Shown in pieces: positions 14,816-64,000 of a DNA stretch of 64,000 nucleotides; within the stretch, counting starts at the first letter, position 1, and every line of letters starts with the position of its first letter. The translations under genes were made by a program, and so were the position numbers. Under the pieces are notes generated by a model, which worked only from the letters and a program-made list of their open reading frames with translations, made no database searches and was not told the DNA's origin. The stretch is from Candidatus Woesearchaeota archaeon. GTDB lineage: Archaea; Nanobdellota; Nanobdellia; Woesearchaeales; WJIZ01. The stretch is taken from the NCBI GenBank assembly GCA_018221205.1, contig JAAOYF010000045.1, positions 3,264 to 67,263 on the forward strand, given 5' to 3'.

Positions 14816-14929
14816 GAGAGGGTAGCGAAGTCTGGTTAAACGCGCAGGACTTAAGAGGAACACCTAGTGTTGTACATTAGGAGATCCTGTCCCTTAGTGG
14901 GTCCGAGGGTTCAAATCCCTTCCCTCTCA
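14816..14929 (+). tRNA. tRNA-Leu with anticodon TAA and an intron of about 28 nt at the canonical position.
   Basis: Acceptor GAGAGGG/CCCTCTC. Anticodon stem CAGGA/TCCTG, loop CTTAAG|intron|A. Long variable arm. T-arm GAGGGTTCAAATCCCTT. A T-tract follows the 3' end. Confidence 0.75.
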
Positions 14930-14979: not shown

Positions 14980-15336
14980 ATGGCATCATTTGAACGTTCA
15001 AGAGAGAGAAAAGGTCGGAAAAAAGATTTTAGAGGTAATCCTTCACGAGGGGGTCCTAGAGGTCGAACAAGCAGTAGAGATAATTTTAGGGGCAAGCGTG
15101 ATTCTGACAAAGATTTCAAAAGGTCTGGTAGGCGTGAGTTGGAATTTACTAAAGTGATGTGCGCATCTTGTGGAGGTAAGTGTGAGGTGCCGTTCAAGCC
15201 GACAGGAAACAAACCTGTTTATTGCAGCGATTGTTTTAAGAAAGAGGATAAGCGAAGTTCCAGTAAGCCTTCTAACAAAGATTTTGATGTGATCAATGAA
15301 AAGCTTGACAAGATCATGGAAGCGTTAGGTCTTTAA
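14980..15336 (+). CDS. Arg/Lys-rich protein with a C-terminal CxxC...CxxC zinc ribbon.
   Basis: The N-terminus is a basic RG-rich low-complexity stretch. CASCGGKCEV...YCSDCFKK forms a four-Cys ribbon. Confidence 0.5.
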   Translation: MASFERSRERKGRKKDFRGNPSRGGPRGRTSSRDNFRGKRDSDKDFKRSGRRELEFTKVMCASCGGKCEVPFKPTGNKPVYCSDCFKKEDKRSSSKPSNKDFDVINEKLDKIMEALGL

Positions 15337-15406
15337 TAAGAATCCAGTCAAGATGTGATCTAAAATTAATAACTTTTATAAATCGTCTAAAAACTAGATT
15401 TCTCGT

Positions 15407-15519
15407 GCTCCCGTAGCTCAGCTGGTAGAGCGTTACCTTGGTAACTTCGAGCGAAGCAAGAAGGCTTGGAACGAAGTTCAAAGAGGTAAAGGTCCCGAGT
15501 TCAAATCTCGGCGGGGGCT
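15407..15519 (+). tRNA. tRNA-Thr with anticodon GGT and an intron of about 40 nt.
   Basis: Acceptor GCTCCCG/CGGGGGC. D-arm GCTCAGCTGGTAGAGC. Anticodon stem TTACC/GGTAA, loop TTGGTA|intron|A. T-arm CCGAGTTCAAATCTCGG. Confidence 0.75.
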
Positions 15520-15568
15520 TGTTCATTGGACACAGTCCTTTATAAACTAAAAAGCGTTCTTCTCGAAT

Positions 15569-16693
15569 ATGGCGTTGGAAGATAGTATCTATGATATTGA
15601 TTATTATATTGGTGTTTGTAGTGATGCAAACACTCTGGCCTTGGCTAGGTTATCGGAAACTAGCAGCGCCATACTTAATATCCTTTCTACAAGAAGATAT
15701 CCAAGATCTTCACATCTCCTTGATCACTATGCTCAGCTTTTATCAGCTCTAGAACATTTTGAAGAGGTATTTGCGGCAAGATCTAAAATGGGTGATGAAT
15801 TGCTCGCTACCTTAAAATCAAAGAGAGAGGGAATCACTTCCTTACTTAGACCTTCTCTTGAAACCCTCCATCACTTGTTCAATGGGGACCATCTTGAGGA
15901 CTGTCTCTACATGGATACGCTTCCAGAACCGATAAAAAGTGCGAAGGATACTGCTTTTTTCTATCTAGCTGGAAGAGATGATCTAACTGTGACTGAAGAG
16001 GGTATTGTGACAGTGGAAGAATGGATAAGGGTAGTTCATCGGTATACTGTATGGAATCTCGCTGTTCTTCATAGTGAAGAAGCAGAGTTTGGAGGAAAAC
16101 CCGCAACATACGTATTTGAGGACACTGGGATACCTTTCTGTGGGGTGGATGCTGATGCCTTTTTCTCCTCTTATTTACCTGAAATCAATCGAGCTATTGC
16201 TGACTTTGAGATAGCTCGTGGTGAAATCAAATTTGAAGATGTAATATTCACTAATCTCGGTTTTTCAGCATTCAAAAGAATAAAACATCATAATGCGCAA
16301 ATCCGTGTCATTTTAGACGGTGATCACTACCATATCCGATTCACTATGGGGGAGGCAGGTTATGGTACTAGTAGAGTTGAATATTGTAGTGAGCTCTTCA
16401 AACCAACGGAATTCACCCATAGAAGTGTCTACCATAATGTTCATAGCGCAACAGCAAGGACAGATGGAAGTACATTGCATCATGATATAACTTTTTTGCT
16501 TTGTGTAGCAGAAAACTTGACTGATGTGGATATTGGCTCAGGTCCTTGTCGACCAGAAGACTTCTATAGGAAATTCAGAATGATTTATGACGGTAAGACA
16601 CAACCAGAAGAACCAGGAAGACCGTTTAAAGTAGGCCATTTGGAAAACGGAGAACGTGTTTGTCATATCGGCTACACACTGTTTTCCTTTTGA
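15569..16693 (+). CDS. Hypothetical protein, 374 aa, lysine-poor and rich in His, Asp and Glu.
   Basis: Long ORF immediately 3' of tRNA-Thr. Its composition differs from the neighbouring K-rich genes. No recognisable motifs. Confidence 0.5.
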   Translation: MALEDSIYDIDYYIGVCSDANTLALARLSETSSAILNILSTRRYPRSSHLLDHYAQLLSALEHFEEVFAARSKMGDELLATLKSKREGITSLLRPSLETLHHLFNGDHLEDCLYMDTLPEPIKSAKDTAFFYLAGRDDLTVTEEGIVTVEEWIRVVHRYTVWNLAVLHSEEAEFGGKPATYVFEDTGIPFCGVDADAFFSSYLPEINRAIADFEIARGEIKFEDVIFTNLGFSAFKRIKHHNAQIRVILDGDHYHIRFTMGEAGYGTSRVEYCSELFKPTEFTHRSVYHNVHSATARTDGSTLHHDITFLLCVAENLTDVDIGSGPCRPEDFYRKFRMIYDGKTQPEEPGRPFKVGHLENGERVCHIGYTLFSF

Positions 16694-18910: not shown

Positions 18911-19465
18911 CTATCTACGATTGATCTCTATGCGAACCTTTCCTGGTTTGAAATCTCTCACTGATTTCTCAATTTCTTGGAGTAGGACCATCTCACCAAT
19001 TACTCTGTTGGCTCGATGCTCTTCGTTTGTATCAGCAGGCTCATGATAAGTCCTTATGCCTATTGTATACAATGCTTCAGGAGGTACTGTCTCATGGAGA
19101 TGTACATTCCCATCTGGATAGAACGTTGGGATTTGTAGCCCTGCTTCTTTGATTGCATCTATTGTCGTCAAAACCATGGAAAGAGAAGATTCTCTCCCAT
19201 CTTCAGACGGCCCTCCAGAATAAGAGAAAAATGAAGATGCTATTGCAGGAGAAAATAGTAATTGCCCTGTCGACCAGCAGCTGCATTGACCTCCTTCAGG
19301 GGTCAATGGCTTAAGTCCGTTGTCGGCTATTGTTTCAAGATCTTTCCCGTGCTTAATGCCGTGGAAAAGGAACATTCCTTCATTTGATTGGTCCACTAGA
19401 TTACGGATATGCGGAGCTAGATCTCCTCCGAGGTATCCTGCTACTTTTTGTGCATAATCTTCCAT
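18911..19465 (-). CDS. Hypothetical protein, 184 aa.
   Basis: ORF with plausible codon usage. No recognised motif. Confidence 0.4.
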   Translation of the reverse strand: MEDYAQKVAGYLGGDLAPHIRNLVDQSNEGMFLFHGIKHGKDLETIADNGLKPLTPEGGQCSCWSTGQLLFSPAIASSFFSYSGGPSEDGRESSLSMVLTTIDAIKEAGLQIPTFYPDGNVHLHETVPPEALYTIGIRTYHEPADTNEEHRANRVIGEMVLLQEIEKSVRDFKPGKVRIEINRR

Positions 19466-19477
19466 TTAGTTTACCTT

Positions 19478-20509
19478 TTAACGATATTCTATAGTTGTTC
19501 CGAGATGGACGCGGGCGAGGATTGCTGCAGAAGTTCCTTTGAGGATACTTCTCCTCACATCAAGAATCTGGTTTTTTTCCCTCTCTTCTGGTTGTTCAGA
19601 ACCGTGATTTTCTGAAGATGCATTAATATAGTGTATCATCTTATTTGGAACTTGCATAGGTATTTCTATGGCTCCATTAGCTCTATAGTCTCCAATTGTC
19701 ATGTGGTCGTCTTCTGAAAGCACTTGATGGCTCGCCACTGCCAGTACTGCTGTAGGATTTCCGTTATCATCATGGTAGAAATTCCTAGAAGGAGCAGTCT
19801 CCGGAGTAAAAAGCTTATCTCCTGTGTGCCATTCTGTCGGTTCATCTTCAAGAGGGAAGATTCCATCTAATCGAATGGCAATATCATAATTATGTACTGT
19901 CCTAAAGAGGAGCCTTTTTTCGTTGGCTACCCTTGTTATCTCTCTTAAAAGCAAAGGATTATTGATTCCAAAATCATAACAGACACTAAGATATTTCTCA
20001 ATAGGGAGTTCTCCATTATCTTGTACTTTGGGACGATCATATTTAGTGAACCAAAGTCCTAATTCCCTTTTTGCTGATTCTTTGGAATCAGACGAATGCA
20101 CCATGTTCTCCATTGCGCGATGCTCTAAATCTGCTAGAGCAAAACTGTCAATGGCTTTGTCTCGCCTTATTGTTCCTCTGGGATTATCAATTGGTTGTGT
20201 TTTCTCTCCAGCGAGTCTCCTGACTTGCTTAATAGCACCACCTCCTGCTATTCTTGCTACTACTACATGACTTCTCCTCATATATGACATGAGCTGATCA
20301 TAGAATTCTTCAAAAATTTCCTTACCCTTTTTTCTGAATTTCTCGAGCACTTCTTCGTAATGTTCCTCTAGTGCTCCTTTTGTCGGGTGTGTAACGAATA
20401 AGTCACCTACTTCCAGTCCGCTGCGTTGGAGCCTATCTATAATTCCGAGGGCTTCGCCTTTTTCTACTGCATCAGGCTTGATAATAAGCAGAGTCTCTTC
20501 AATTGCCAT
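19478..20509 (-). CDS. ndk: Nucleoside diphosphate kinase domain fused to a C-terminal domain of about 175 aa of unknown function.
   Basis: The NDK motifs LLIIKPDAV, TIRRD and NMVHSSDS (NxxHGSD-like) occupy the first ~165 aa. The start is taken at the internal MAIEETLL. The remainder has no match I recognise. Confidence 0.7.
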   Translation of the reverse strand: MAIEETLLIIKPDAVEKGEALGIIDRLQRSGLEVGDLFVTHPTKGALEEHYEEVLEKFRKKGKEIFEEFYDQLMSYMRRSHVVVARIAGGGAIKQVRRLAGEKTQPIDNPRGTIRRDKAIDSFALADLEHRAMENMVHSSDSKESAKRELGLWFTKYDRPKVQDNGELPIEKYLSVCYDFGINNPLLLREITRVANEKRLLFRTVHNYDIAIRLDGIFPLEDEPTEWHTGDKLFTPETAPSRNFYHDDNGNPTAVLAVASHQVLSEDDHMTIGDYRANGAIEIPMQVPNKMIHYINASSENHGSEQPEEREKNQILDVRRSILKGTSAAILARVHLGTTIEYR

Positions 20510-20644
20510 ATAATGGGGAATAAAAATAGCATTTATAAAGCTTCCCTTTTTGTTACTATTATATAGTGATATATAAATTGTATAATTTATTTTATCGTCT
20601 TTCTTGCTTATTTTCAATATAGAAAATAATTAAGGCAAAAAAAA

Positions 20645-53148: not shown

Positions 53149-53828
53149 TGCAGCTTACAAAAGATCTTAAAGATTTAGCGAATCCTAAGAAAAAGAAGAT
53201 TCTTCAACGGTTTTTCAAGACTGGTAAAGGAGAGTATGGTGAGGGAGATATCTTTCTTGGAGTGATGGTGCCTGAGCAGAGGAAGATTGCGAAGAAATAC
53301 AAGGATCTTCCCTTGAAGGATATCCAGTCCTTATTGAACAGCAAGATCCATGAGCATCGATTAGTTGCGTTGTTTATCCTTGTCGGGCAGTATAGCAAGT
53401 CCAAAGATAAAAAGTATGTTGATTTTTATCTGAAGAATACTAAACGGGTGAATAATTGGGATCTTGTAGACCTGTCTGCGCATAAGATCCTTGGAGATTA
53501 CTTATTGGATAAGAAACGAGATATCTTGTATATGTTAGCTCGATCTAAGAATCTGTGGGAGAGAAGAATATCTATTCTTTCTACTTTTGCATTCATCAAT
53601 AATGGCGAGTATAGAGATTCTTTGCGGATAGCTGAGATGTTGCTCCATGACAAACATGATCTTATCCATAAAGCTGTAGGCTGGATGTTACGTGAAGTTG
53701 CTAAACGAGTGAATAAATCCAAAGCAAAAGCATTTCTTGTCAAACATAAGAAAGACATGCCTCGGACGATGCTGAGATATGCTATCGAACGTTATCCTGA
53801 AAAAGAACGGAAGATGTTGATGAGCTAA
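53145..53828 (+). CDS. DNA alkylation repair (AlkD-like HEAT-repeat) protein.
   Basis: [29 protein letters not shown], which I recall as the alkylation-repair family (Pfam PF08713). Confidence 0.7.
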
Positions 53829-54070
53829 TTCTCCTTATTCTCTGGTATTATCTCTGTATACGGACATAAGGTGGGATCGTCATTCTCTACAATCTGCTTT
53901 GCATATGCGTAGCATGTTGTATGACCGCACTTCCCGCAGTTGAGACCTGGAAGCTGTCTCTCAAGTATCTTTATCCTTGGCTCATGGAACGCTTTGATCT
54001 TTTTCGGGAGGAAATGCAAAATAAGCCCGATGATAAGAATAAAGAATCCTATCACTAGTATCCCTATCAT
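53825..54070 (-). CDS. RnfB N-terminal-domain-only protein (a membrane anchor plus a Cys-cluster region).
   Basis: [25 protein letters not shown]...CP parallels the RnfB N-terminal Fe-S domain. No ferredoxin domains. Confidence 0.55.
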
Positions 54071-54633
54071 GGTGCCACCCCGATAAATGCTGCTGAGATG
54101 ATGGCTGCGATGATCAGTGCAATGGGAAGGCCTTTGAATGGCTTTGGGATATTCAGCTTATCTACTTTCTCTTTCAGGGCTGAGAAGATGAATAAAGCAA
54201 GGGAAAAGCCTAAAGCAGCTGAGAATCCTGCTACGATAGATTGGACCAACGTGAATTGTTCCTGGAGATTAAAGAATACTATTCCGAGAATCGCAGTATT
54301 CGTTGTCAATACTGGCAGATATCTGCCGAAAGATCTGTGCCATTCAAAGAGGTATTTCTCAATGAATATGTGGAAGAGCTGTGCGAAGAACATGATGGAT
54401 ATAACAAAAGCCACTATAAAGAGATATTCCACTTCAAAGGGGATGAGGATAAAGAAGTTGATCAACCAGGCAATAACACTTGAGAAAGTCATGAAGATTA
54501 TCATAGCTAGGCTTAAGCCTAGAGTGTGCCTCCTTTCTGATAGGCCAAGGAGGGGGTGAAAGCCCAGAAACTTGGTGAGGACAATATTATTGGCGAAGAT
54601 CATGCTCAACCCTAACAAGAGCAGCTCATTCAT
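54067..54633 (-). CDS. rnfA: Rnf/Nqr complex subunit A (RnfA/NqrE family).
   Basis: FANNIVLTKFLGFHPLLGLS. Confidence 0.7.
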   Translation of the reverse strand: MNELLLLGLSMIFANNIVLTKFLGFHPLLGLSERRHTLGLSLAMIIFMTFSSVIAWLINFFILIPFEVEYLFIVAFVISIMFFAQLFHIFIEKYLFEWHRSFGRYLPVLTTNTAILGIVFFNLQEQFTLVQSIVAGFSAALGFSLALFIFSALKEKVDKLNIPKPFKGLPIALIIAAIISAAFIGVAP

Positions 54634-55363
54634 CTTTCTTTTCCTCCTTCCTTTCTTCCTTCTTCTCCAGTTTCTTTATTTTTTGCAGCTTTTTTCTCTG
54701 ATCGTGGATAAAGGCATGCATGGCGATGATCAATGCCAGAACGATCAAGGCTCCTGGTGCTAATCCCAGCAATGGGAAGGCTCCAAGATATTTTGCCTTC
54801 ACCACCTGGATCCCGAATACCATAAGCCTGCCTGTCGAGAACAGCTCTCTCAACAGAGCGATGAGTATGACGAGAAGAGAGAGTGCGACGCTGAAGCCGA
54901 GCGCATCCAAGATTGCCCTCAATGGGTTGTGCTTTGAGGAAAAGGTCTCTGCCCGTGCATAGAGCATGCCGTTCACTGCAATCAACGGAAAAAATATCCC
55001 TAGAGATTCCTGCATGCCGGAGAAGTTCTCCTGGAACAGTATGTATACAGCTGTTGTCAAGATCGTTGTGATGACCGTGACAATGAACCTTTTCTGCTCA
55101 AGAGAATATTTCAAGAGCGACATGAAAAAAGCAGAGAGGACAAATATGCCAGTGAATGCTACCATCATGCTGAGCGCATTATCTAATGAGATGGTAATAG
55201 CGAGAATAGGAAAAAGACCCCATAGAAGGAATGAGGAGTTCTTGAGTGAAAATGCTTTGGTACATTCAGACAGATAACTGACAATAGCGCTGCCTATGTG
55301 GATGAGCTTATCTTTTGTCTCTTTCGGAATCAGCTCGATTCCTGTGTCTTCGTCTTCTGCCAT
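54626..55363 (-). CDS. rnfE: Rnf/Nqr complex subunit E (RnfE/NqrD family) with a K/E tail.
   Basis: SLGIFFPLIAVNGMLYARAETF...LDALGFSVALSLL. Confidence 0.7.
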   Translation of the reverse strand: MAEDEDTGIELIPKETKDKLIHIGSAIVSYLSECTKAFSLKNSSFLLWGLFPILAITISLDNALSMMVAFTGIFVLSAFFMSLLKYSLEQKRFIVTVITTILTTAVYILFQENFSGMQESLGIFFPLIAVNGMLYARAETFSSKHNPLRAILDALGFSVALSLLVILIALLRELFSTGRLMVFGIQVVKAKYLGAFPLLGLAPGALIVLALIIAMHAFIHDQRKKLQKIKKLEKKEERKEEKKDE

Positions 55364-56118
55364 CTTTCTATCAAAGGAGTGAGGAAACTCATGAAAAGTA
55401 TAGCATATAGCACTGCATGCAATGGATTGAAACTTCGTATAAGGACTGTCAGCATGCCTGCACCTATGGCGTAGGTCGCTTTGCCTTCGATATGTCTTGG
55501 AAAGGTATTGAATGTCGGGAGGAGGAAGAATGCTGCCAAGAGGAGATCGGTATTGAGAAGCTGGAAGACGTTCTGCTGCAAGACAAATATCAAGCCATAG
55601 ACTGATATGAGGAAAAAGAGAGGTATGCGCCAGTCAATCACTCTTGCGATCATGAGGATTAAGCCGCCGATGATGAGGGCGAATGGAGATATCGTCCCGA
55701 AGGTAACTTGATTGAAAAGCAAGGGAAAGGAGATGATGAGGAAGACGATCGAGACAATAGAAGGGTGGAAAGGGATATTGGATCCGAAGATATTGATGAG
55801 AGCGACTGCAACTATCGATGAGAGGATGGGAAGCCACAATGGAGCATTCACCGGCAGCAACATCGCACTCAATAAAGAAGCTGCAATCGCTGCTCCGATC
55901 GATTTGTAGGATGGCACACTCAAGAGAATGTTTATCAGCGACTGGGTGAGCATTCCCAGCAATACTGCTATGATCTGGATGACCAATGCCTTATTGCCAA
56001 GAACAAAAACTGAGGCAAATGATGCCGGCAAAAGCGCGATGACGACAAGCCAAAGCCTCCTGTCGATGTAATTTGAGAAATATTCTCCTAAAAGCTTGAG
56101 CTCAAATGATTTCTGCAT
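55330..56118 (-). CDS. rnfD: RnfD/NqrB-like polytopic membrane subunit (putative).
   Basis: Polytopic membrane protein directly upstream of rnfE and rnfA, with an NIPFHP motif. Its position supports the call. Confidence 0.45.
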   Translation of the reverse strand: MQKSFELKLLGEYFSNYIDRRLWLVVIALLPASFASVFVLGNKALVIQIIAVLLGMLTQSLINILLSVPSYKSIGAAIAASLLSAMLLPVNAPLWLPILSSIVAVALINIFGSNIPFHPSIVSIVFLIISFPLLFNQVTFGTISPFALIIGGLILMIARVIDWRIPLFFLISVYGLIFVLQQNVFQLLNTDLLLAAFFLLPTFNTFPRHIEGKATYAIGAGMLTVLIRSFNPLHAVLYAILFMSFLTPLIERWQKTKTQESS

Positions 56119-57067: not shown

Positions 57068-57373
57068 TTATCCAAATAAGGCGCCCAATCCGGCAGCAGC
57101 CTGCTCTTCAGACTTCTTATCGTCTGCTGCCTTCTCCTTCTTCTCTGCTGGTTTGTCAGCAGCGGCAGGAGCAGCGGCAGGAGCAGCGGCAACAGCTACA
57201 GAAGCTTTTTCGATCGCTTCATCGATGTTAACGCCTTCGAGGCTGGCCACCAAGGCCTTTACACGGGCATCATCTGTTTTGACGCCTGCACTTTCAAGCA
57301 CTTTTTTGACAGTGGCTTCATCAACTTTGCCACCTGCTTTGTGGATCAACATTGCTGCATATATATATTCCAT
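57068..57373 (-). CDS. rpl12e: Acidic ribosomal stalk protein P1 (L12e).
   Basis: [15 protein letters not shown], an Ala-rich hinge, and the C-terminal GLGALFG. Confidence 0.9.
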
Positions 57374-57387
57374 TTTAATACCTCCAA

Positions 57388-58434
57388 TTAGGATTGTTCC
57401 TTTGTTTCTTTTTTCTCCTCAGGCTTATCAGCCTTTGGCTCTTCTTTCTTCTCCTCTGATCTCTCTTCAGTCTTCTCCTGGGCCTCGGGTTTCTGCTCTT
57501 TTGGAGCTTCTTCCTTTTTTGGCTCTTCTTTCGGAGTTTCAGGTTTGGGCTCTTCTTTCGGAGCCTCTTCCTTAGGAGCATCAGGGATATTAGCTGTCTG
57601 CTTTAATGATTGCATCTGGTTTTCTGCTTTAGCGAGTAACTCTGCTGTCACTGCATCAGCCATGAAATTCGCCTCTAAAGCGAGTGCTTTAGAATCTCTG
57701 AATGCCTTTGCGACAAGCTCTGGCATCAGTTCCTTTGTCAGATGGCCAATGTCCATAGCAAGATTCCTTGCCCAGCTAGCTGCTTGCTGTAGATCGGCCA
57801 TGAATCGATCTTCATCAACATCCAATACTTTTCGATCATAAATCGTTCCTGCCTCATAGATCCCTGTTATGTCCAAACCGATCTCCATGGGCTTGATGTC
57901 GAGCCTTGCCAAGACGCTCGCGACATTTGCCTGGATCACTTCGCCTTCCTTGACAACGACAGAATCTTCTTTGATGGCGACCTTTCCGTTTTCCACGCCT
58001 GTCTTGATGCCTATCTGGCCCAGCTCTCCGATAATGGGGCCGGGCATGAATGGGGTGGTGCCTGCCTTGACCATGATGTCTTTCGGAGCCTTCTGTCCTG
58101 CTTTGGCAACGGCTGGAGATTTTGACTTCTTGATTATCTTGTAAATAGCAAAGGGGTTTTCTTTCGTGAATAAAAGTGCGGGCATGCCATCCAAGCGTTC
58201 AACAAGGGTGTTGATGCCTTTTTTTGATTTCTCAGCCTCTTCGAACGCTAATTTCATCAATCTTCGCTTTGCCATGAATATCTCTGCTTTTCCTCTTAGC
58301 TTGGCACGCATGGTCTGGACAGCGCTTGCAGGCAGATTCTCCATGTTGACAGCGCCGATTATAGGAGCATCTACAATAAGCTTCACGAGCTTCTTTACCA
58401 GCTCTTTCTTATACGATGCTGCTTTTGTTTTCAT
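57388..58434 (-). CDS. rplP0: Ribosomal stalk protein P0 (L10e) with a K/E/P-rich tail.
   Basis: The N-terminal L10 domain and a C-terminal low-complexity extension. Confidence 0.9.
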
Positions 58435-59251
58435 CTTCGGTTTCAGGCTTTGATTCTATGTTAGGAGCAGGTTTTTCTTCAGGTTTGGCCTTTACTTCTT
58501 TCTTAGGTTTTGTCTCGGGATCGGCCTTTGCTTTCTTCTTAGGAGTAGGTTTTTTCTTAGGCTTCTCCTTCGGTGCTTCTTTCTCTTGCGGCTTATACTC
58601 TTCGCCTACTTTGAACGCCTGGCCCATGGTCATCTTCAGATAGACTTCCCGGATGTTATGGATATCACTAGGAAGGGCGTGGACCAATGCATTGTAGAGT
58701 GTCATGATATTATCTATGATATGTTCTTCATCCATCTCCTCTGTCCCTACGCGAGACTGGAAGATTGGAGCAGCATCTATCCGTATCCTGACTGTCTTCT
58801 GCAGCTTTTCTGCTACAGCCTGTAGGTTCGCATTAGGGGGAACGACACAGCCTGCTTTTGGATTAGGCATCTTTCCTCTCGGACCCAATGACCTACCGAA
58901 GGATGTAGCTACCTGAGGCATGATATTTGCCTGCGCCACAAAGAATGTATGTTCTTTAGCAAGCTTTTTCAGCACTTTCTTATCACTGAATTTTGAGAAA
59001 TCAGTTGCTGTGATAGACTTATCGAAATGCTTTTCAGCCTGATCCTTCAATTCTGGACCGACTAATCCGCAGATCTTGGTCTTCTTTCCTGTGCTGAAAT
59101 GGAGCTGGGCAAAGACATCTACCTTGTTATCCTGTTTCTTCAGATCAATGTCTTTGAGATTAACGACTATGTCTATGCTCTGCTTGAAATTCCGTTTAGG
59201 AGAATTATCTTTGATGATCTTTAAGGTCTGTTTTACTTGTGCTTTATCCAT
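58409..59251 (-). CDS. rpl1: Ribosomal protein L1 with a K/P/E-rich tail.
   Basis: L1 core followed by about 60 aa of KPxEK repeats. Confidence 0.9.
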   Translation of the reverse strand: MDKAQVKQTLKIIKDNSPKRNFKQSIDIVVNLKDIDLKKQDNKVDVFAQLHFSTGKKTKICGLVGPELKDQAEKHFDKSITATDFSKFSDKKVLKKLAKEHTFFVAQANIMPQVATSFGRSLGPRGKMPNPKAGCVVPPNANLQAVAEKLQKTVRIRIDAAPIFQSRVGTEEMDEEHIIDNIMTLYNALVHALPSDIHNIREVYLKMTMGQAFKVGEEYKPQEKEAPKEKPKKKPTPKKKAKADPETKPKKEVKAKPEEKPAPNIESKPETEDENKSSIV

Positions 59252-59345
59252 CTTCTCGCCCCTGCTAGCTGCGTGCAGTTAGTTTACGGGTATTACTGCT
59301 CTAGTCAAGGATTGAGAAGGGGTATATAAAGATTACGGATAAGGA

Positions 59346-59696
59346 TTAGAGGTATGGTTGAATATTCTTATGGGCTTCTCGGATTAACTCTGGACGACAT
59401 TCTCCATATGTAAATCCTGTTAAGGCTTCTGCGTCTCGAATGCCCAAAAATGACCATGCAAAGCGTGCTACTGCCTCTTGATAAGGATCATATGAACTTG
59501 TAGAAACATAACTTATGCCCCTGAGACCTTCGATAGCTTCATCCACGAATCTGTTCAAAATCATGCGATCCCCTGTAGAAAGATGCATCCGAAATCCATT
59601 TCTCACTAGAAGGTATGCTTTTCTCTTGAATTCTGATCTATATCTGCATGCTATTGCATGGATATCAATTTTCCTCACAAAACCTTCTAAGTCCAT
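59346..59696 (-). CDS. Hypothetical protein of 116 aa, lysine-poor.
   Basis: ORF preceded by a TATA-containing 25-nt element that is repeated upstream of the next gene. Confidence 0.45.
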   Translation of the reverse strand: MDLEGFVRKIDIHAIACRYRSEFKRKAYLLVRNGFRMHLSTGDRMILNRFVDEAIEGLRGISYVSTSSYDPYQEAVARFAWSFLGIRDAEALTGFTYGECRPELIREAHKNIQPYL

Positions 59697-59703
59697 AGTC
59701 GAG

Positions 59704-59728
59704 AAGAATGAATATCAGTATATAAAAT
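59704..59728 (-). promoter_or_regulatory. A 25-nt element AAGAATGAATATCAGTATATAAAAT (plus strand), copy 1. It contains a TATA box about 28 nt upstream of the 116-aa gene start.
   Basis: An exact second copy lies at 61502-61526. On the minus strand it reads ATTTTATATACTGATATTCATTCTT. Confidence 0.55.
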
Positions 59729-61452
59729 CAGGTGGCATATTGAACAAAATTCTTCTGTAAGAATGCTGAGACTTTTTCATCGCCGAGTCTGTCTGTTATT
59801 CTTTTTGCGCCTAGTGCAGATGTTAAATCTGCTTTTACAGTATCTCGTCTTGCATCTGCTATATCCAGAAATGCTAATCCGACAGCATATTGTCGGATTT
59901 CTGTTGGAGCTTCTTGTTCTTTTTCAAAATCGAAAATTGGAGTAGGGTCATCTATATTGTACAGGTACTCAGCACCATTTTCTAGTCTGTGTTCTGCAAT
60001 TCTTTCATAAATACTTGGTGCGGCTGATCTAGGATCCCAATCGTGAGCAGCGAGGATAACATGTACTGGATCAACATCTTCTCTTTTTACATCACTCTCT
60101 TTAAAGGGACCCCAATATGAATCGACTAGTCTTTCTACATAATGTATTAGATTACTATCACCATCAAGCCTTTGAACTAAATCCTTAAATCCGTCTAACT
60201 CCATCAATTCATGGGCTATCATAGTTTTGCCCATAAACCGATATCGATTTCCGCGTTCTTCTGATCGTGCTGCTTCTGCCCTTCTTTCATCTCTTCGTGA
60301 TTGGTACGTTTTATACTCTGAATCGATAGCCTGTAGGCTTCTTTTATCTCCTAATGATCCATATGCTTCTTTTACAAAATTGACTCCTGTATGCAAGTAA
60401 AAAGAGTCTCCTCCCTCTTTCATCACTTGTTGAGCGTGCTGATGGGTCCTGATAGCTGCACTCCTAAGCGTTTCACCCTCTAAGTCCATCAAGATACGCT
60501 TGAAATGCGCAGATTCCATAAGGATTAATCCATCTGCGTCTGTCATCTTCTCATGCAATCGTGTTAAGACTTTTTCATAATCAAATTCAGTCTGAGTTGC
60601 TACTCGCAATGCATATTCCCAGGCATATCTCCCTTTTTCCCCTAGTTGCCTTGCTATCTTGACGACTTCTTCTTTGACTTTTTCATCCATCTTTAATGCA
60701 CTTTCTGCATATACCTCAGCCAAAGTGTACATTTTTCTTTCTATAAGGTGGTGTGAAATAGCAATATAATCAGTAGCAGTTTGCTCTAGCGTTGGCTTAA
60801 TTCTCTGAAGAATCTCAGCGACTGGTGCCTTATCATAAGTGCTCGGGTAGGCGAACCAATTACATAATAGATCTTCACTACGCATCCAAAGCATTTCTCT
60901 ATTTTGAACAGACACTCCTGGCTCCCTTCCTAATTTTTCAAAGAATTTCAAAGCTTGATTTAATGCCTCTGGAGATGGATGGTCTTCCATGTAAGTTTGT
61001 GCTATCTCTGCACGACGGTCATCATCAATATCTTCTGTTTGTTCAAATAGGGATATGATTGTTTCGAGAGGTTTGTAGGATATTACACCATTTTCCCATT
61101 GTGGATGGAGAAAATCATGAGCGATTTCTTTTACCTTATCTTTTCTTCCGATTTGTGAAAATATTTCGGCCTGATATTCCTTATGTACTGCTGATATCCT
61201 CTGTACAGCGACCTCTTTGGCTTCTTCTGGAAGGAGTGCATATAACGCACCGATTCTTTCAGCAACAAAATCAATGGCTATTCCTCCTTGAGAGAGTCGT
61301 TCTACGAGATAATTAATGCCATGTTGAGCGATTCCAGTTCGTTCATCTTCATCAAACATAGAAAGATCTGGAGCAGTTTTTATATCGCCTGCCCTCTTCA
61401 CAGCTGATGCTGCAGCACCCATGGTCTGGAGTAAAAACTTTGGTATAGTCAT
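59728..61452 (-). CDS. Hypothetical alpha-helical protein of about 575 aa, Arg-rich and Lys-poor.
   Basis: Long ORF. The track start at 61461 is a TTG; the first ATG is at 61452. A GAGGAG Shine-Dalgarno-like element lies upstream. Confidence 0.5.
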   Translation of the reverse strand: MTIPKFLLQTMGAAASAVKRAGDIKTAPDLSMFDEDERTGIAQHGINYLVERLSQGGIAIDFVAERIGALYALLPEEAKEVAVQRISAVHKEYQAEIFSQIGRKDKVKEIAHDFLHPQWENGVISYKPLETIISLFEQTEDIDDDRRAEIAQTYMEDHPSPEALNQALKFFEKLGREPGVSVQNREMLWMRSEDLLCNWFAYPSTYDKAPVAEILQRIKPTLEQTATDYIAISHHLIERKMYTLAEVYAESALKMDEKVKEEVVKIARQLGEKGRYAWEYALRVATQTEFDYEKVLTRLHEKMTDADGLILMESAHFKRILMDLEGETLRSAAIRTHQHAQQVMKEGGDSFYLHTGVNFVKEAYGSLGDKRSLQAIDSEYKTYQSRRDERRAEAARSEERGNRYRFMGKTMIAHELMELDGFKDLVQRLDGDSNLIHYVERLVDSYWGPFKESDVKREDVDPVHVILAAHDWDPRSAAPSIYERIAEHRLENGAEYLYNIDDPTPIFDFEKEQEAPTEIRQYAVGLAFLDIADARRDTVKADLTSALGAKRITDRLGDEKVSAFLQKNFVQYAT

Positions 61453-61501
61453 ATGTATCAAACTCCTCAGAAATCTGAGGTTTTACCCTCTTTTTTAACG
61501 C

Positions 61502-61526
61502 AAGAATGAATATCAGTATATAAAAT
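61502..61526 (-). promoter_or_regulatory. The same 25-nt TATA-containing element, copy 2, upstream of the 575-aa gene.
   Basis: Exact repeat of 59704-59728. Confidence 0.55.
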
Positions 61527-61533
61527 TACTGAA

Positions 61534-62280
61534 CTATAATTTAAACACGTCTAATGGTTCTGGCAGAATCACTTTTATCGTGGAATCTTTCATCGCTTTC
61601 TTGATCTCTTCTTTCTTATCTCTGCGGCAGCTTCTATGGATATGAGTCAATGCTAATGCTCGAATCTTTCTTCTCTCTGCCATCTCGATTGTTTTCTTGA
61701 TCGATGAATGGCCTTGCTTTTCCTGTTCGAAGAAAAACGTCTCCTGGATCAATAGATCGCAGTTCTCATAGAGCTTCTCTGTCTCTGGGGTAAATTGGCC
61801 ATCGCCGGAATAGCAGACAGAATGCTTATTGTCAGTCACCCTTACTGCAAGATTAGGGACAGGATGGATAGTAGGGGCAAAGGTCAATTTCAGCTCGTTC
61901 AACGTGAGATCCTCTCCTGCTTGCACTTCGATGATGCTGAAAGGAAAAGTAAATCGTTCTTGCAGTTTGCTATAGCCTAATTTTATTATCTCTTCGATGA
62001 GCTTCTTTACCCCTTTTTGGCAGACTATGGTCAGTTTTTTTGTTCTCTGCTCTTCTGCCATCCTCACCAGTAAGGCTGGCAGGCCAAAATAATGGTCTGC
62101 ATGCCTATGGGAGATGTAGATCGCGTCAAGAAAATCTCTCTCGTCAGTATACTTCCATAATTGCCTCGGTACGGAATAGCCGCAGTCTAAAAGAAGATTA
62201 GTCTTTGAATGGATAAGATGAGAATTATTCGGAAAGCGTTCATCAGCTGCCTCTCCTACACCGATATGGATTAGTTTCAT
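61534..62280 (-). CDS. Metallo-beta-lactamase-fold hydrolase.
   Basis: The HRHADHYFGL (HxHxDH) motif. Confidence 0.7.
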   Translation of the reverse strand: MKLIHIGVGEAADERFPNNSHLIHSKTNLLLDCGYSVPRQLWKYTDERDFLDAIYISHRHADHYFGLPALLVRMAEEQRTKKLTIVCQKGVKKLIEEIIKLGYSKLQERFTFPFSIIEVQAGEDLTLNELKLTFAPTIHPVPNLAVRVTDNKHSVCYSGDGQFTPETEKLYENCDLLIQETFFFEQEKQGHSSIKKTIEMAERRKIRALALTHIHRSCRRDKKEEIKKAMKDSTIKVILPEPLDVFKL

Positions 62281-63362
62281 CCTGCTAGAGAAGGGATGGG
62301 GATATATATAGGTTTTCTTCTTTCCAATTGATTATATATCACCCCCACAATACTTTCTACTCCATTTTCTGGATGATAGGTATTCAATGGCAAAACAGTC
62401 CGCGGATTTCCAAACCTTTCGAGAGCATTACTAAGTTCTCTTTGCAGCTCTTCTTTGTTTTTTGCGATAGGCACCCGAGATTCAAATACATCTGCCCTTA
62501 TTGTATCACCCGGCCATGGCTGATAGCTCACACCAGGCACATCCGCAATACTTGCGTCAAGAAGTGTTGTTGAATAGGAACTTACAGCAACATCAGAGTT
62601 TGCAATGATAGTTATACAATCCCCTTGAACAAAGGGTATCCCTTCTGATCTGGCTCTTTCGAAGTGAGATTCGTTTGATTGTCCATGTTTCTTTATCTGA
62701 AACTTCACTTCTTGACCTAACCTTCTTATTGCATCCATAACCCCATCAAGAAATTGGCCTTGAGAATAAGGGCCTATTCTCAGAATCCCTCTTTCATAGT
62801 CAAGCTCGAAAGGACAGTCAAGATAAGTGACTACTGGAGTTTCATTAGCAGTAGCTGAAGCTCTTTTAACTCTTTCATATACCCCATCGAAATGAGGATT
62901 TCCAACTTCAATGAATGCCTGCGGATCGATTCCATGATCCTGCATATACGTATGGGTCGCGGGGTCTGTTATCAGTATTTTTGTTGGTAGCAATAACTGC
63001 CCATCAAGACGTTCAGAGAATTTGGCTAAACCAATCTGCCCCCCCATATCGGGTATGAGCATAAGATAGGTCGTATCGAGCTCACGGCATAAGCGCATCA
63101 GGGTATTTTCTGAGGGTTCCCGATAGGATTTGCCGCTCAGTACGAGGTCTGCCTGTTCTACCAACTGTCTTGCTTCTTCTTCGAAGGAGGCTTCTATCAA
63201 TTGATAATCTATCCCCATCTGATCCAATGTTGCTGCTCCAAATCCATCGTTAATGACTAGAAGTTCAAGTGAGGTATCTTGGCGTAAGGTATCTATTACG
63301 GGTTTAAGAGCCCGAGCAGCTAAAACTTCGCTTAGTAAGATAAGAATTTTTTCTTTTGACAT
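62277..63362 (-). CDS. Two-Rossmann-domain (GT-B-like) protein, hypothetical.
   Basis: Overlaps the MBL gene (ATGA coupling). Alternating beta/alpha pattern in two halves. Family not secure. Confidence 0.35.
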   Translation of the reverse strand: MSKEKILILLSEVLAARALKPVIDTLRQDTSLELLVINDGFGAATLDQMGIDYQLIEASFEEEARQLVEQADLVLSGKSYREPSENTLMRLCRELDTTYLMLIPDMGGQIGLAKFSERLDGQLLLPTKILITDPATHTYMQDHGIDPQAFIEVGNPHFDGVYERVKRASATANETPVVTYLDCPFELDYERGILRIGPYSQGQFLDGVMDAIRRLGQEVKFQIKKHGQSNESHFERARSEGIPFVQGDCITIIANSDVAVSSYSTTLLDASIADVPGVSYQPWPGDTIRADVFESRVPIAKNKEELQRELSNALERFGNPRTVLPLNTYHPENGVESIVGVIYNQLERRKPIYIPIPSLAG

Positions 63363-63479
63363 GGTAACTCCGAACGTTAGATATGTCTAGCAGACTCATT
63401 ATTGATTTATATATTATATCTGAATTATTTTTGTAAAAACAGAATATTTTTATATAATAACTATAATATTACAAAGATA

Positions 63480-64000
63480 TGGATCAAATCTTCAGATTAT
63501 CGGGAAACGAGCTCTCTGTTCTCCGCCAATTGGAGTCAAACGCGCGGATGTCTTACTCGACAATCGGCAAGAAAACAAGAAAAAGCCAGCAGCGGGTAAG
63601 CTATGCTGTGGCATCAATGGTAAAGAAAGGCATCATCACAAAATTGTATCCGTTGATTGATTATGCCAAATTAGGAATCTTGAGCTTCCGGGTTTACTTC
63701 AAGCTCTCCTATAAAAGCGAGCGTGAAGTGAAGGAATTTGTCGATCATCTTGCTTCCCGGAACTTTACATACTGGATTGCCCATACTGGTGGAGTATATG
63801 ATTTAATTTGTACCTTCTTTTCACCGAATGTTTCGCAGTTTTATAAGAATTTACGTCGGGTTATGGCGACATTTCCTACACTCATCCGTGACTATGCTGT
63901 GCTTACCACAATCGTCACCAGGAGATTCGGCAGAAAATATCTCAGAGTCGATGATCCTTCGAAGATAATCTATCTCGGCGGTGATCGTCCGAGGGAAGAG
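63480..64000 (+). CDS. Lrp/AsnC-family HTH regulator. The 3' end lies outside the window.
   Basis: LSGNELSVLRQLESNARMSYSTIGKKTRKSQQRVSYAVASMVKKGII is HTH_AsnC-like. The frame is open to the window end. Confidence 0.65.

Follow-up and report, generated by a model that had tools for sequence, protein, structure and literature searches.

A probable lineage-specific mosaic segment upstream of the L1-P0-P1 ribosomal protein genes of a Woesearchaeota archaeon

We analysed a stretch of 64,000 nt (the window) from a metagenome-assembled genome (MAG) of a Candidatus Woesearchaeota archaeon (GCA_018221205.1, contig JAAOYF010000045.1, positions 3,264-67,263 of the forward strand); the contig measures 70,257 bp, ~6 kb more than the window. 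The subject is a block of four genes at 59346-63362, upstream of the genes for ribosomal proteins L1, P0 and P1, that encode a 116-aa protein (p116), a 574-aa protein (p574), an MBL-fold hydrolase (MBL) and a 361-aa protein (p361), all on one strand with short gaps between them. We consider it likely that this block is a lineage-specific, mosaic segment of the flexible genome, located at a rearrangement-prone boundary upstream of an autonomous L1-P0-P1(-DUF7121) unit, and that rpl11, the gene of ribosomal protein L11, was not displaced by it. Three of the four genes were probably acquired from elsewhere. An earlier reading of the sequence (the original prediction) had regarded the block as lysine-poor, probably foreign DNA in place of rpl11; the open reading frames (ORFs) that it had located, for P1, P0, L1, the 116-aa and ~575-aa proteins, the MBL-fold hydrolase and the GT-B-like protein, are all present on the minus strand. 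The main value of the analysis is corrective, as the "missing rpl11" goes back to the ancestor of a large Woesearchaeota clade and is not an event in this genome.

Position of L11 relative to the L1 operon

The archaeal cluster of these ribosomal protein genes has the order L11-L1-L10(P0)-L12(P1), and the absence of L11 from its conserved position, which had led to the proposal that the block replaced it, is confirmed: neither L11 nor Spt5 is encoded anywhere in the 64-kb window. We compared the region with 80 loci around L1, taken from related Woesearchaeota and Nanoarchaeota with one genome per species, in which L1 is 44%-63% identical to that of the window. The sequence upstream of L1 exceeds 1 kb in 71 of these loci, 3 kb in 58 and 8 kb in 39, and was checked for L11 up to 10 kb from L1. 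In the window L1, P0 and P1 are contiguous and co-oriented on the minus strand, and this arrangement is well kept among the relatives, with P0 following L1 in 79 of the 80, P1 following P0 in 67, and a DUF7121 gene following P1 in 65.

The upstream side of L1 is not conserved in this way. L11, preceded by spt5, adjoins L1 only in the five most distant of the 80 loci (L072, L074, L077, L078 and L080), while in the other 75 no L11 was found near L1 with tblastn, a purpose-built hidden Markov model or iterated tblastn, and spt5 is likewise missing. The four ORFs upstream of L1 fall across the relatives into ~190 sequence clusters, the biggest of which has seven members, and p116, p574 and p361 occur in none of the 80 loci. 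The upstream edge of the L1-P0-P1-DUF7121 unit is a hypervariable synteny breakpoint in this clade. Together with the TATA-like box that L1 has of its own (Table 1), the synteny pattern indicates that the unit is autonomous in the clade and that an L11 gene located elsewhere is the lineage norm, contrary to the proposed replacement. The segment did not displace rpl11, because L11 and L1 were already unlinked in the clade's ancestor, and the locus should therefore not be scored as an island that disrupts a ribosomal operon.

Some features of the ribosomal proteins themselves were also observed. In four of the distant loci, from Nanoarchaeia/Woesearchaeota MAGs (L072:1804-2295, L074:8413-8889, L077:2946-3425 and L080:9407-9892), L11 lies directly after spt5, begins with MKSGPN(A/S)TSRMILKE, and consists only of the C-terminal (rRNA-binding) domain followed by a K/A/E-rich tail; the N-terminal domain is absent from all frames of the 450 nt upstream. 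In the Parvarchaeota locus, L078, L11 is full-length. L1 (280 aa) and P0 (348 aa) of the window carry long K/E/P-rich C-terminal extensions, and the tblastn matches to L1 in the relatives stop at about residue 215.

Codon usage and amino acid composition

All four proteins of the block had been described as poor in lysine. This is the case for p116, p574 and p361, whose lysine content is 3.4%, 6.1% and 3.6%, respectively, compared with a mean of 10.1% in the other genes, and whose K/(K+R) is 0.24, 0.47 and 0.37, compared with 0.68 ± 0.12 for the other 66 genes. It is not the case for MBL, where lysine is normal (9.7%, K/(K+R) 0.63). The contrast seemed stronger at first reading because the immediate neighbours L1, P0, P1 and DUF7121 are extreme in the opposite direction, with 13-21% lysine.

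The same three genes are set apart by the G+C content at third codon positions (GC3), which is 0.31 for p116, 0.28 for p574 and 0.33 for p361, versus 0.491 ± 0.072 for the other genes (z of -2.3 to -2.9). They are within the five lowest-GC3 genes of 69, and the low-GC3 class is discrete, as it contains seven genes at 0.34 or less and the next lowest value is 0.38. The deviation in synonymous codon usage of p116, p574 and p361 taken together amounts to a G/codon of 0.204, versus a mean of 0.059 and a maximum of 0.117 for 998 random gene triples. The GAA/GAG counts are 77/19 in the three genes and 650/652 in the others (p=5e-9), with CAA/CAG, TTA/CTG, ATT/ATC and TTT/TTC shifted in the same way. 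The compositional anomaly of these three genes exceeds chance.

The MBL gene and the regulator gene that follows p361 have a native-like GC3 (0.47 and 0.49), and along the block GC3 switches at the gene boundaries, from p361 to MBL, again to p574, and on to p116 at a similarly low level. The presence of a native-like MBL gene between atypical genes shows the block to be mosaic rather than a single island. The GC3 difference is not driven by expression, since the ribosomal protein genes, at 0.41-0.49, are not above average. A foreign origin is therefore supported for p116, p574 and p361, by GC3, synonymous codon usage and phyletic pattern, and not for MBL or for a single inserted unit; likewise, the expected contrast with the rest of the window is found in GC3, codon usage and K/R of three genes, and neither in MBL nor in tetranucleotides.

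A second patch with the same signature is located at 15-20.6 kb, and includes the genes at 14980-15336, 15569-16693, 18911-19465 and 19478-20617 (NDK domain). These genes have a GC3 of 0.31-0.34, are mostly Lys-poor, and show a G/codon of 0.181, and their codon usage cannot be told apart statistically from that of the block. A 379-aa NDK-domain fusion belongs to the patch, the continuity of which is broken by a native-like adenylosuccinate lyase gene. No att-type repeats were found at this patch (14980-16693 and 18911-20617) or near its tRNAs at ~15 kb. The two tRNA genes, at 14816-14929 and 15407-15519 on the plus strand, were identified by Rfam (55.7 and 47.6 bits), while ARAGORN reported none in the window; their length of ~113 nt suggests introns. 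They flank the small treble-clef zinc-finger gene at 14980-15336 (zf_Tbcl_2, 1.5e-16), and lie just upstream of the atypical 374-aa gene.

Genes of the block and the repeat around p574

The description of p574 as an Arg-rich helical protein of ~575 aa was accurate. It has 574 residues (577 if translation starts at an alternative TTG at 61461) with 7.0% Arg, and its AlphaFold2 (AF2) model is all-helical, with a pLDDT of 64 overall and mostly 70-90 for residues 30-400. Foldseek returned only generic TPR/Sel1/IFIT-like structures (E of 1.5e-3 or worse, TM <0.25), and the fold matches in BFVD are generic Sel1/TPR proteins only; p574 has no Pfam match, no recognisable TPR/Sel1 repeat motif and no confident fold match, and a search of the PDB sequences with its profile found nothing. 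In homology searches, p116 matched only itself among 5.8 billion proteins, and p574 matched, of 1.84 billion cluster representatives, two remote homologues, both in unrelated archaeal contexts. The first, P0005 (650 aa, E 2e-9), comes from a metagenome contig of 3.4 kb. The second, P0006 (637 aa, E 1.5e-4), belongs to a contig of an archaeal MAG, where it lies next to genes for RtcB with an intein, gyrase B, an SMC-like ATPase and a toxin-antitoxin-like pair. All three members share an N-terminal PDLSMF motif, which is invariant in their alignment. P0005 and P0006 have lower GC3 and K/(K+R) than their neighbours, and the p574-family genes are thus compositional outliers in all three host genomes. 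The surroundings of P0006 are loosely defence-island-like: an SMC/AAA_23-type ATPase gene precedes it, and it is followed by a convergent pair of 50 and 107 aa that resembles a toxin-antitoxin module (L085:12134-12598).

The p574 gene is flanked by a perfect 25-nt direct repeat, ATTTTATATACTGATATTCATTCTT on the minus strand (61526-61502 and 59728-59704), which is present in two copies in 64 kb when up to 3 mismatches are allowed, with 0 expected. The upstream copy lies 7 nt past the MBL stop codon and 49 nt ahead of the p574 ATG, and the 49-nt stretch includes a GAGG and the hairpin CCTCAGAtttCTGAGG. The downstream copy shares bases with the p574 stop codon, and 7 nt separate its end from the p116 ATG. 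We infer that p574 and p116 are each driven by an identical 25-nt core promoter. In p116 the TATA box ends 22 nt 5' of the ATG, the right distance for an mRNA that is probably leaderless. No Pfam, NCBIfam, PADLOC, PHROGs or PDB match was found for this protein.

A flanking repeat is also present at P0005, in this case of 32 nt (27/32 identical, 15 nt exact; L084:356-387 and L084:2486-2517, around the gene at 519-2471). The flanking repeats differ in sequence between the genomes, which implies that they derive from the host. When the gene and one repeat copy are deleted, compact intergenic regions of 39, 75 and 136 nt are obtained for the three p574-family cases. As a control, we scored the best ungapped match between the 250 nt upstream and the 250 nt downstream of 1129 genes of related loci, and found scores of at least 25 in 1, at least 18 in 2 and at least 12 in 74 of them; the three p574-family members score 25, 18 and 12. 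The repeat around p574 suggests the insertion of a single-gene cassette with duplication of the promoter. A more general proposal, that the three-member p574 family, found on DPANN-type archaeal contigs, is a mobile promoter-less cassette that inserts 3' of a host promoter and duplicates 19-32 nt, is tentative and at present decidedly doubtful. The top two of the 1129 scored genes are a Fic-domain gene (L040:6667-7614, minus strand; protein with HPFADGNGRVGR), which has a 48-nt imperfect flanking repeat, and a gene for an unknown 227-aa protein (L042:11657-12340, plus strand), which has a 33-nt flanking repeat with a TATA-like box at its end, 28 nt upstream of the ATG. These two repeats hint at a more general route of gene insertion in Woesearchaeota.

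The assignment of p361 as a GT-B-like protein is supported by its AF2 model (pLDDT 78), which has two Rossmann domains in a GT-B fold, and by Foldseek, with UDP-GlcNAc 2-epimerases as the best matches (3ot5, 4neq and 5xvs; E 3e-12, TM 0.6-0.68, 12-15% identity). There is no Pfam match to p361, which does not reach the gathering threshold of PF02350, while two of its homologues match this family at 3.9e-5; the C-terminus has only weak matches, of glycosyltransferase type. We predict that p361 uses a nucleotide sugar and acts as an epimerase or a transferase. Three homologues were found at ~40% identity. The first comes from a Bacteroidia MAG, where it is bordered by a CarboxypepD_reg protein on one side and a Por_Secre_tail protein on the other; the second, on a contig of 29% GC, adjoins an HxlR regulator; the third, on a 1.2-kb metagenome contig, came from the metagenome scan. 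Since these relatives include a Bacteroidia protein whose composition is typical of its own genome, p361 most likely results from a bacterium-to-archaeon transfer. A 13/15-nt repeat flanking p361 (62257-62271 and 63470-63484) was rejected as compatible with chance, both copies being in coding sequence.

The p361 stop codon overlaps the MBL start codon by 4 nt (ATGA), and the two genes appear to be translationally coupled. The MBL protein is an MBL-fold hydrolase, as predicted (Lactamase_B_2, 9e-25), with the HxHxDH metal-binding motif present as HRHADH. RNase Z is its closest family, but against the model TIGR02651 it scores only 118.4 bits, in two stretches, where the cut-off is 292.95. Only the N-terminal half aligns with 1y44, and an end-to-end alignment is obtained with 6kns, an arm-less hydrolase of 250 aa; the flexible arm, the exosite for tRNA binding located between the two halves of the MBL domain, is absent. 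The matches to the Apyc1 and cyclic-nucleotide phosphodiesterase models are also under the cut-offs (PF23023, 31.7 bits versus 50; NF041851, 67.9 versus 400). MBL is thus predicted to be an arm-less RNase Z-like phosphodiesterase and not a bona fide tRNA 3' endonuclease, and PGAP, in naming it "ribonuclease Z" (MBR9699914.1), has probably over-annotated it, because the tRNA-binding arm is missing and the score falls so far short of the cut-off. Phage homologues of MBL have at most 30% identity, and a metagenome scan for MBL found nothing.

Across an AT-rich spacer, p361 and MBL face the gene of a winged helix-turn-helix (wHTH) regulator. A divergent regulator of the Lrp family had been proposed here; the divergent wHTH gene is present, and its Lrp/AsnC-type matches are only weak. 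HTH_24 matches at 4.9e-7, NCBIfam gives weak LysM/ChrS/Lrp matches, and no AsnC_trans_reg (RAM) match is found in the portion that precedes the window end at 64000.

Two candidate affiliations of the block were considered and rejected. PADLOC gave nothing meaningful for membership in a defence system. As to a viral origin, p361 and p574 are without relatives in IMG/VR, and PHROGs match only generically, for MBL. Literature searches found nothing specific to the topic.

Table 1 Features of the block and of the adjoining L1 operon, in window coordinates
Feature	Position	Strand	Basis
Ribosomal stalk protein P1 (L12e), last gene of the L1 operon	57068..57373	-	Pfam Ribosomal_60s 1.2e-14
Ribosomal protein P0 (L10), long K/E/P-rich tail	57388..58434	-	Pfam Ribosomal_L10 + RL10P_insert
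Ribosomal protein L1, first gene of the L1-P0-P1 operon	58409..59251	-	Pfam Ribosomal_L1 6.6e-42; NCBI "50S ribosomal protein L1", MBR9699911.1
TATA-like box TTTATATA of the L1 operon, 71 nt 5' of the L1 ATG	59323..59330	-	Sequence; putative function from the archaeal promoter consensus
p116, 116-aa ORFan, GOV09_05635, Arg-rich, Lys-poor, probably leaderless	59346..59696	-
25-nt direct repeat, downstream copy, ATTTTATATACTGATATTCATTCTT on the minus strand; putative TATA box for p116	59704..59728	-
p574, 574-aa all-alpha TPR/Sel1-like protein, GOV09_05640, candidate single-gene cassette	59728..61452	-
25-nt direct repeat, upstream copy; putative TATA box for p574	61502..61526	-
Predicted arm-less RNase Z-like MBL-fold phosphodiesterase (248 aa), MBR9699914.1, compositionally native	61534..62280	-
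p361, 361-aa GT-B-fold UDP-GlcNAc 2-epimerase-like protein, GOV09_05650	62277..63362	-
Divergent intergenic region p361/regulator, 116 nt, AT-rich, TATA-like boxes facing both ways	63363..63478	.	Putative promoter function
wHTH transcriptional regulator, weakly Lrp/AsnC/MarR-like, cut by the window end	63479..64000	+	HTH_24 4.9e-7, MarR_2

Beyond the L1 operon, directly downstream of DUF7121, the minus strand of the window carries at 53825-56118 two Rnf-Nqr membrane-subunit genes (PF02508), one NQR2_RnfD_RnfE gene (PF03116) and a small "putative Fe-S cluster" gene (PF04060), which together resemble part of a membrane complex of the Rnf type, here in a DPANN genome.

Origin of the block and comparison with known systems

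In the history that we favour, the block would consist of one native gene, MBL, amid three foreign genes, gained on at least two separate occasions. The p361 gene would have come from a bacterium and been coupled later to MBL, with the p361-MBL pair transcribed divergently from the wHTH regulator, and a promoter-less p574 cassette would have inserted between the p116 promoter and p116, duplicating the promoter. Several points weigh against this history. The tetranucleotide distance over the block is unremarkable (z ~0.9-1.1), and no donor was found for p574 or p116. The composition intrinsic to the families is already moderately K-poor, with a K/(K+R) of 0.52-0.65 in the homologues, and the repeat at P0006 is only a weak A-rich 19-mer (16/19), without significance when taken alone. 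As p361 is a divergent outlier of its small family, any transfer was not recent or not direct, and its 4-nt overlap with MBL argues for long cohabitation despite the differing GC3. Finally, the search for L11 in this genome covered the 64-kb window of the MAG, and the search for an integrase was made within the window, so that one could lie past 64000.

The three atypical genes could instead be native orphans, either fast-evolving or young, with GC3 and lysine lowered by weak expression or selection and not by horizontal transfer. Such an origin agrees with p116 being an ORFan and p574 nearly one, with the lack of a donor, with a tetranucleotide signature that is not deviant, and with the host-type TATA promoters that all three genes seem to use. 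We nevertheless regard it as unlikely, because GC3 does not track expression in the ribosomal protein genes, the low-GC3 genes form a discrete class, the p574 family is compositionally outlying in three different genomes, and p361 has a 40%-identical homologue that is compositionally native in a Bacteroidia MAG.

It is quite improbable that the four genes are a coherent functional set under the wHTH regulator, for example a surface-glycan or nucleotide-sugar pathway in which a GT-B enzyme and a phosphodiesterase would work with a TPR scaffold and a small partner, position and composition then being incidental. The genes are co-oriented with short gaps, p361 and MBL overlap, the regulator is divergent, and the identical core promoter proposed for p574 and p116 is compatible with co-regulation; however, two or more block genes were not seen together in the 80 L1 loci or around the homologues of p361 and p574, which stand alone in unrelated contexts, and neither PADLOC nor PHROGs gave a system-level match. 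As the genes never co-occur elsewhere, the four are not a conserved module.

The interpretation first given to the locus, one foreign island inserted upstream of L1 that displaced or replaced rpl11, is largely refuted, and we consider it very improbable. It is true that three of the four genes are atypical in codon usage and low in lysine, that L11 is absent from the window, and that the classical L11-L1-L10-L12 order is present in the five most distant relatives. Against it stand the unlinked L11 of the other 75 relatives, the native-like MBL gene in the middle of the block, and the fact that its genes are never together elsewhere. The block also lacks the uniformly atypical composition expected of an integrase-mediated island. 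The original prediction had itself seen no integrase, and indeed the four genes have no such match in Pfam, NCBIfam, PHROG or PADLOC. No tRNA is found in or beside the block, the only ones in the window being those at 14.8 and 15.4 kb, and no direct repeats flank the whole block, as the only significant repeat flanks p574 alone. That the mosaic is an assembly artefact, joining the DNA of two organisms in a metagenome, is hardly credible: the source is a MAG contig and the two codon-usage classes are sharply distinct, but atypical and native genes interleave singly (L1, then p116 and p574, then MBL, then p361, then the regulator), the junctions are tight or overlapping with promoters apparently shared, and a like interleaving is seen at 15-20.6 kb.

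Under the mosaic reading that we prefer, the segment is ordinary flexible genome, and the repeat of the p574 family is the one feature that may merit follow-up, since repeats that seem to duplicate a promoter around p574 and a homologue offer a lead on the way in which compact archaeal genomes gain single genes. The window also illustrates a DPANN genome with a discrete codon-usage class of probably acquired genes, in two patches, one of these genes encoding a GT-B enzyme whose relatives include a Bacteroidia protein. This agrees with the notion that DPANN archaea acquire genes from members of their community.

An autonomous L1-L10-L12 operon is known from Methanococcus vannielii. The window resembles this operon and the archaeal L11-L1-L10(P0)-L12(P1) cluster in the contiguity of L1, P0 and P1 and in having a TATA box and leader directly 5' of L1. 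It differs from the cluster in the lack of an upstream L11 or spt5, as is usual in its clade, where DUF7121 is a conserved fourth, downstream member. With the small horizontally acquired "genomic islets" the block has in common a discrete atypical codon/GC3 class, an orphan or patchy distribution of its genes and the location at a synteny breakpoint, whereas it has no integrase, tRNA target or island-wide flanking repeat, and contains a native gene in the middle.

Among the individual proteins, p361 has a predicted GT-B fold closest to the WecB, MnaA and NeuC structures of the UDP-GlcNAc 2-epimerase family (PF02350), and departs from that family in its low identity, the missing Pfam match and the weak C-terminal matches to glycosyltransferase families. 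MBL shares with RNase Z/ElaC and their arm-less relatives (6kns, BA1088 1zkp and phage Apyc1) the fold, the HRHADH motif, and the HST-like and C-terminal His motifs, and is unlike true RNase Z in having no flexible arm and in scoring far under the RNase Z, Apyc1 and cyclic-nucleotide phosphodiesterase cut-offs. With the TPR/Sel1 repeat proteins p574 shares only the all-alpha architecture. As a candidate cassette, p574 has no attC-like element, integrase or transposase, unlike integron cassettes and related systems, and the repeats of its family (19-32 nt) exceed classical target-site duplications in length and variability. What it would have in common with integron cassettes, Campbell-type integration and long target-site duplications is a promoter-less gene placed 3' of a host promoter, between direct repeats whose sequence is specific to the host.

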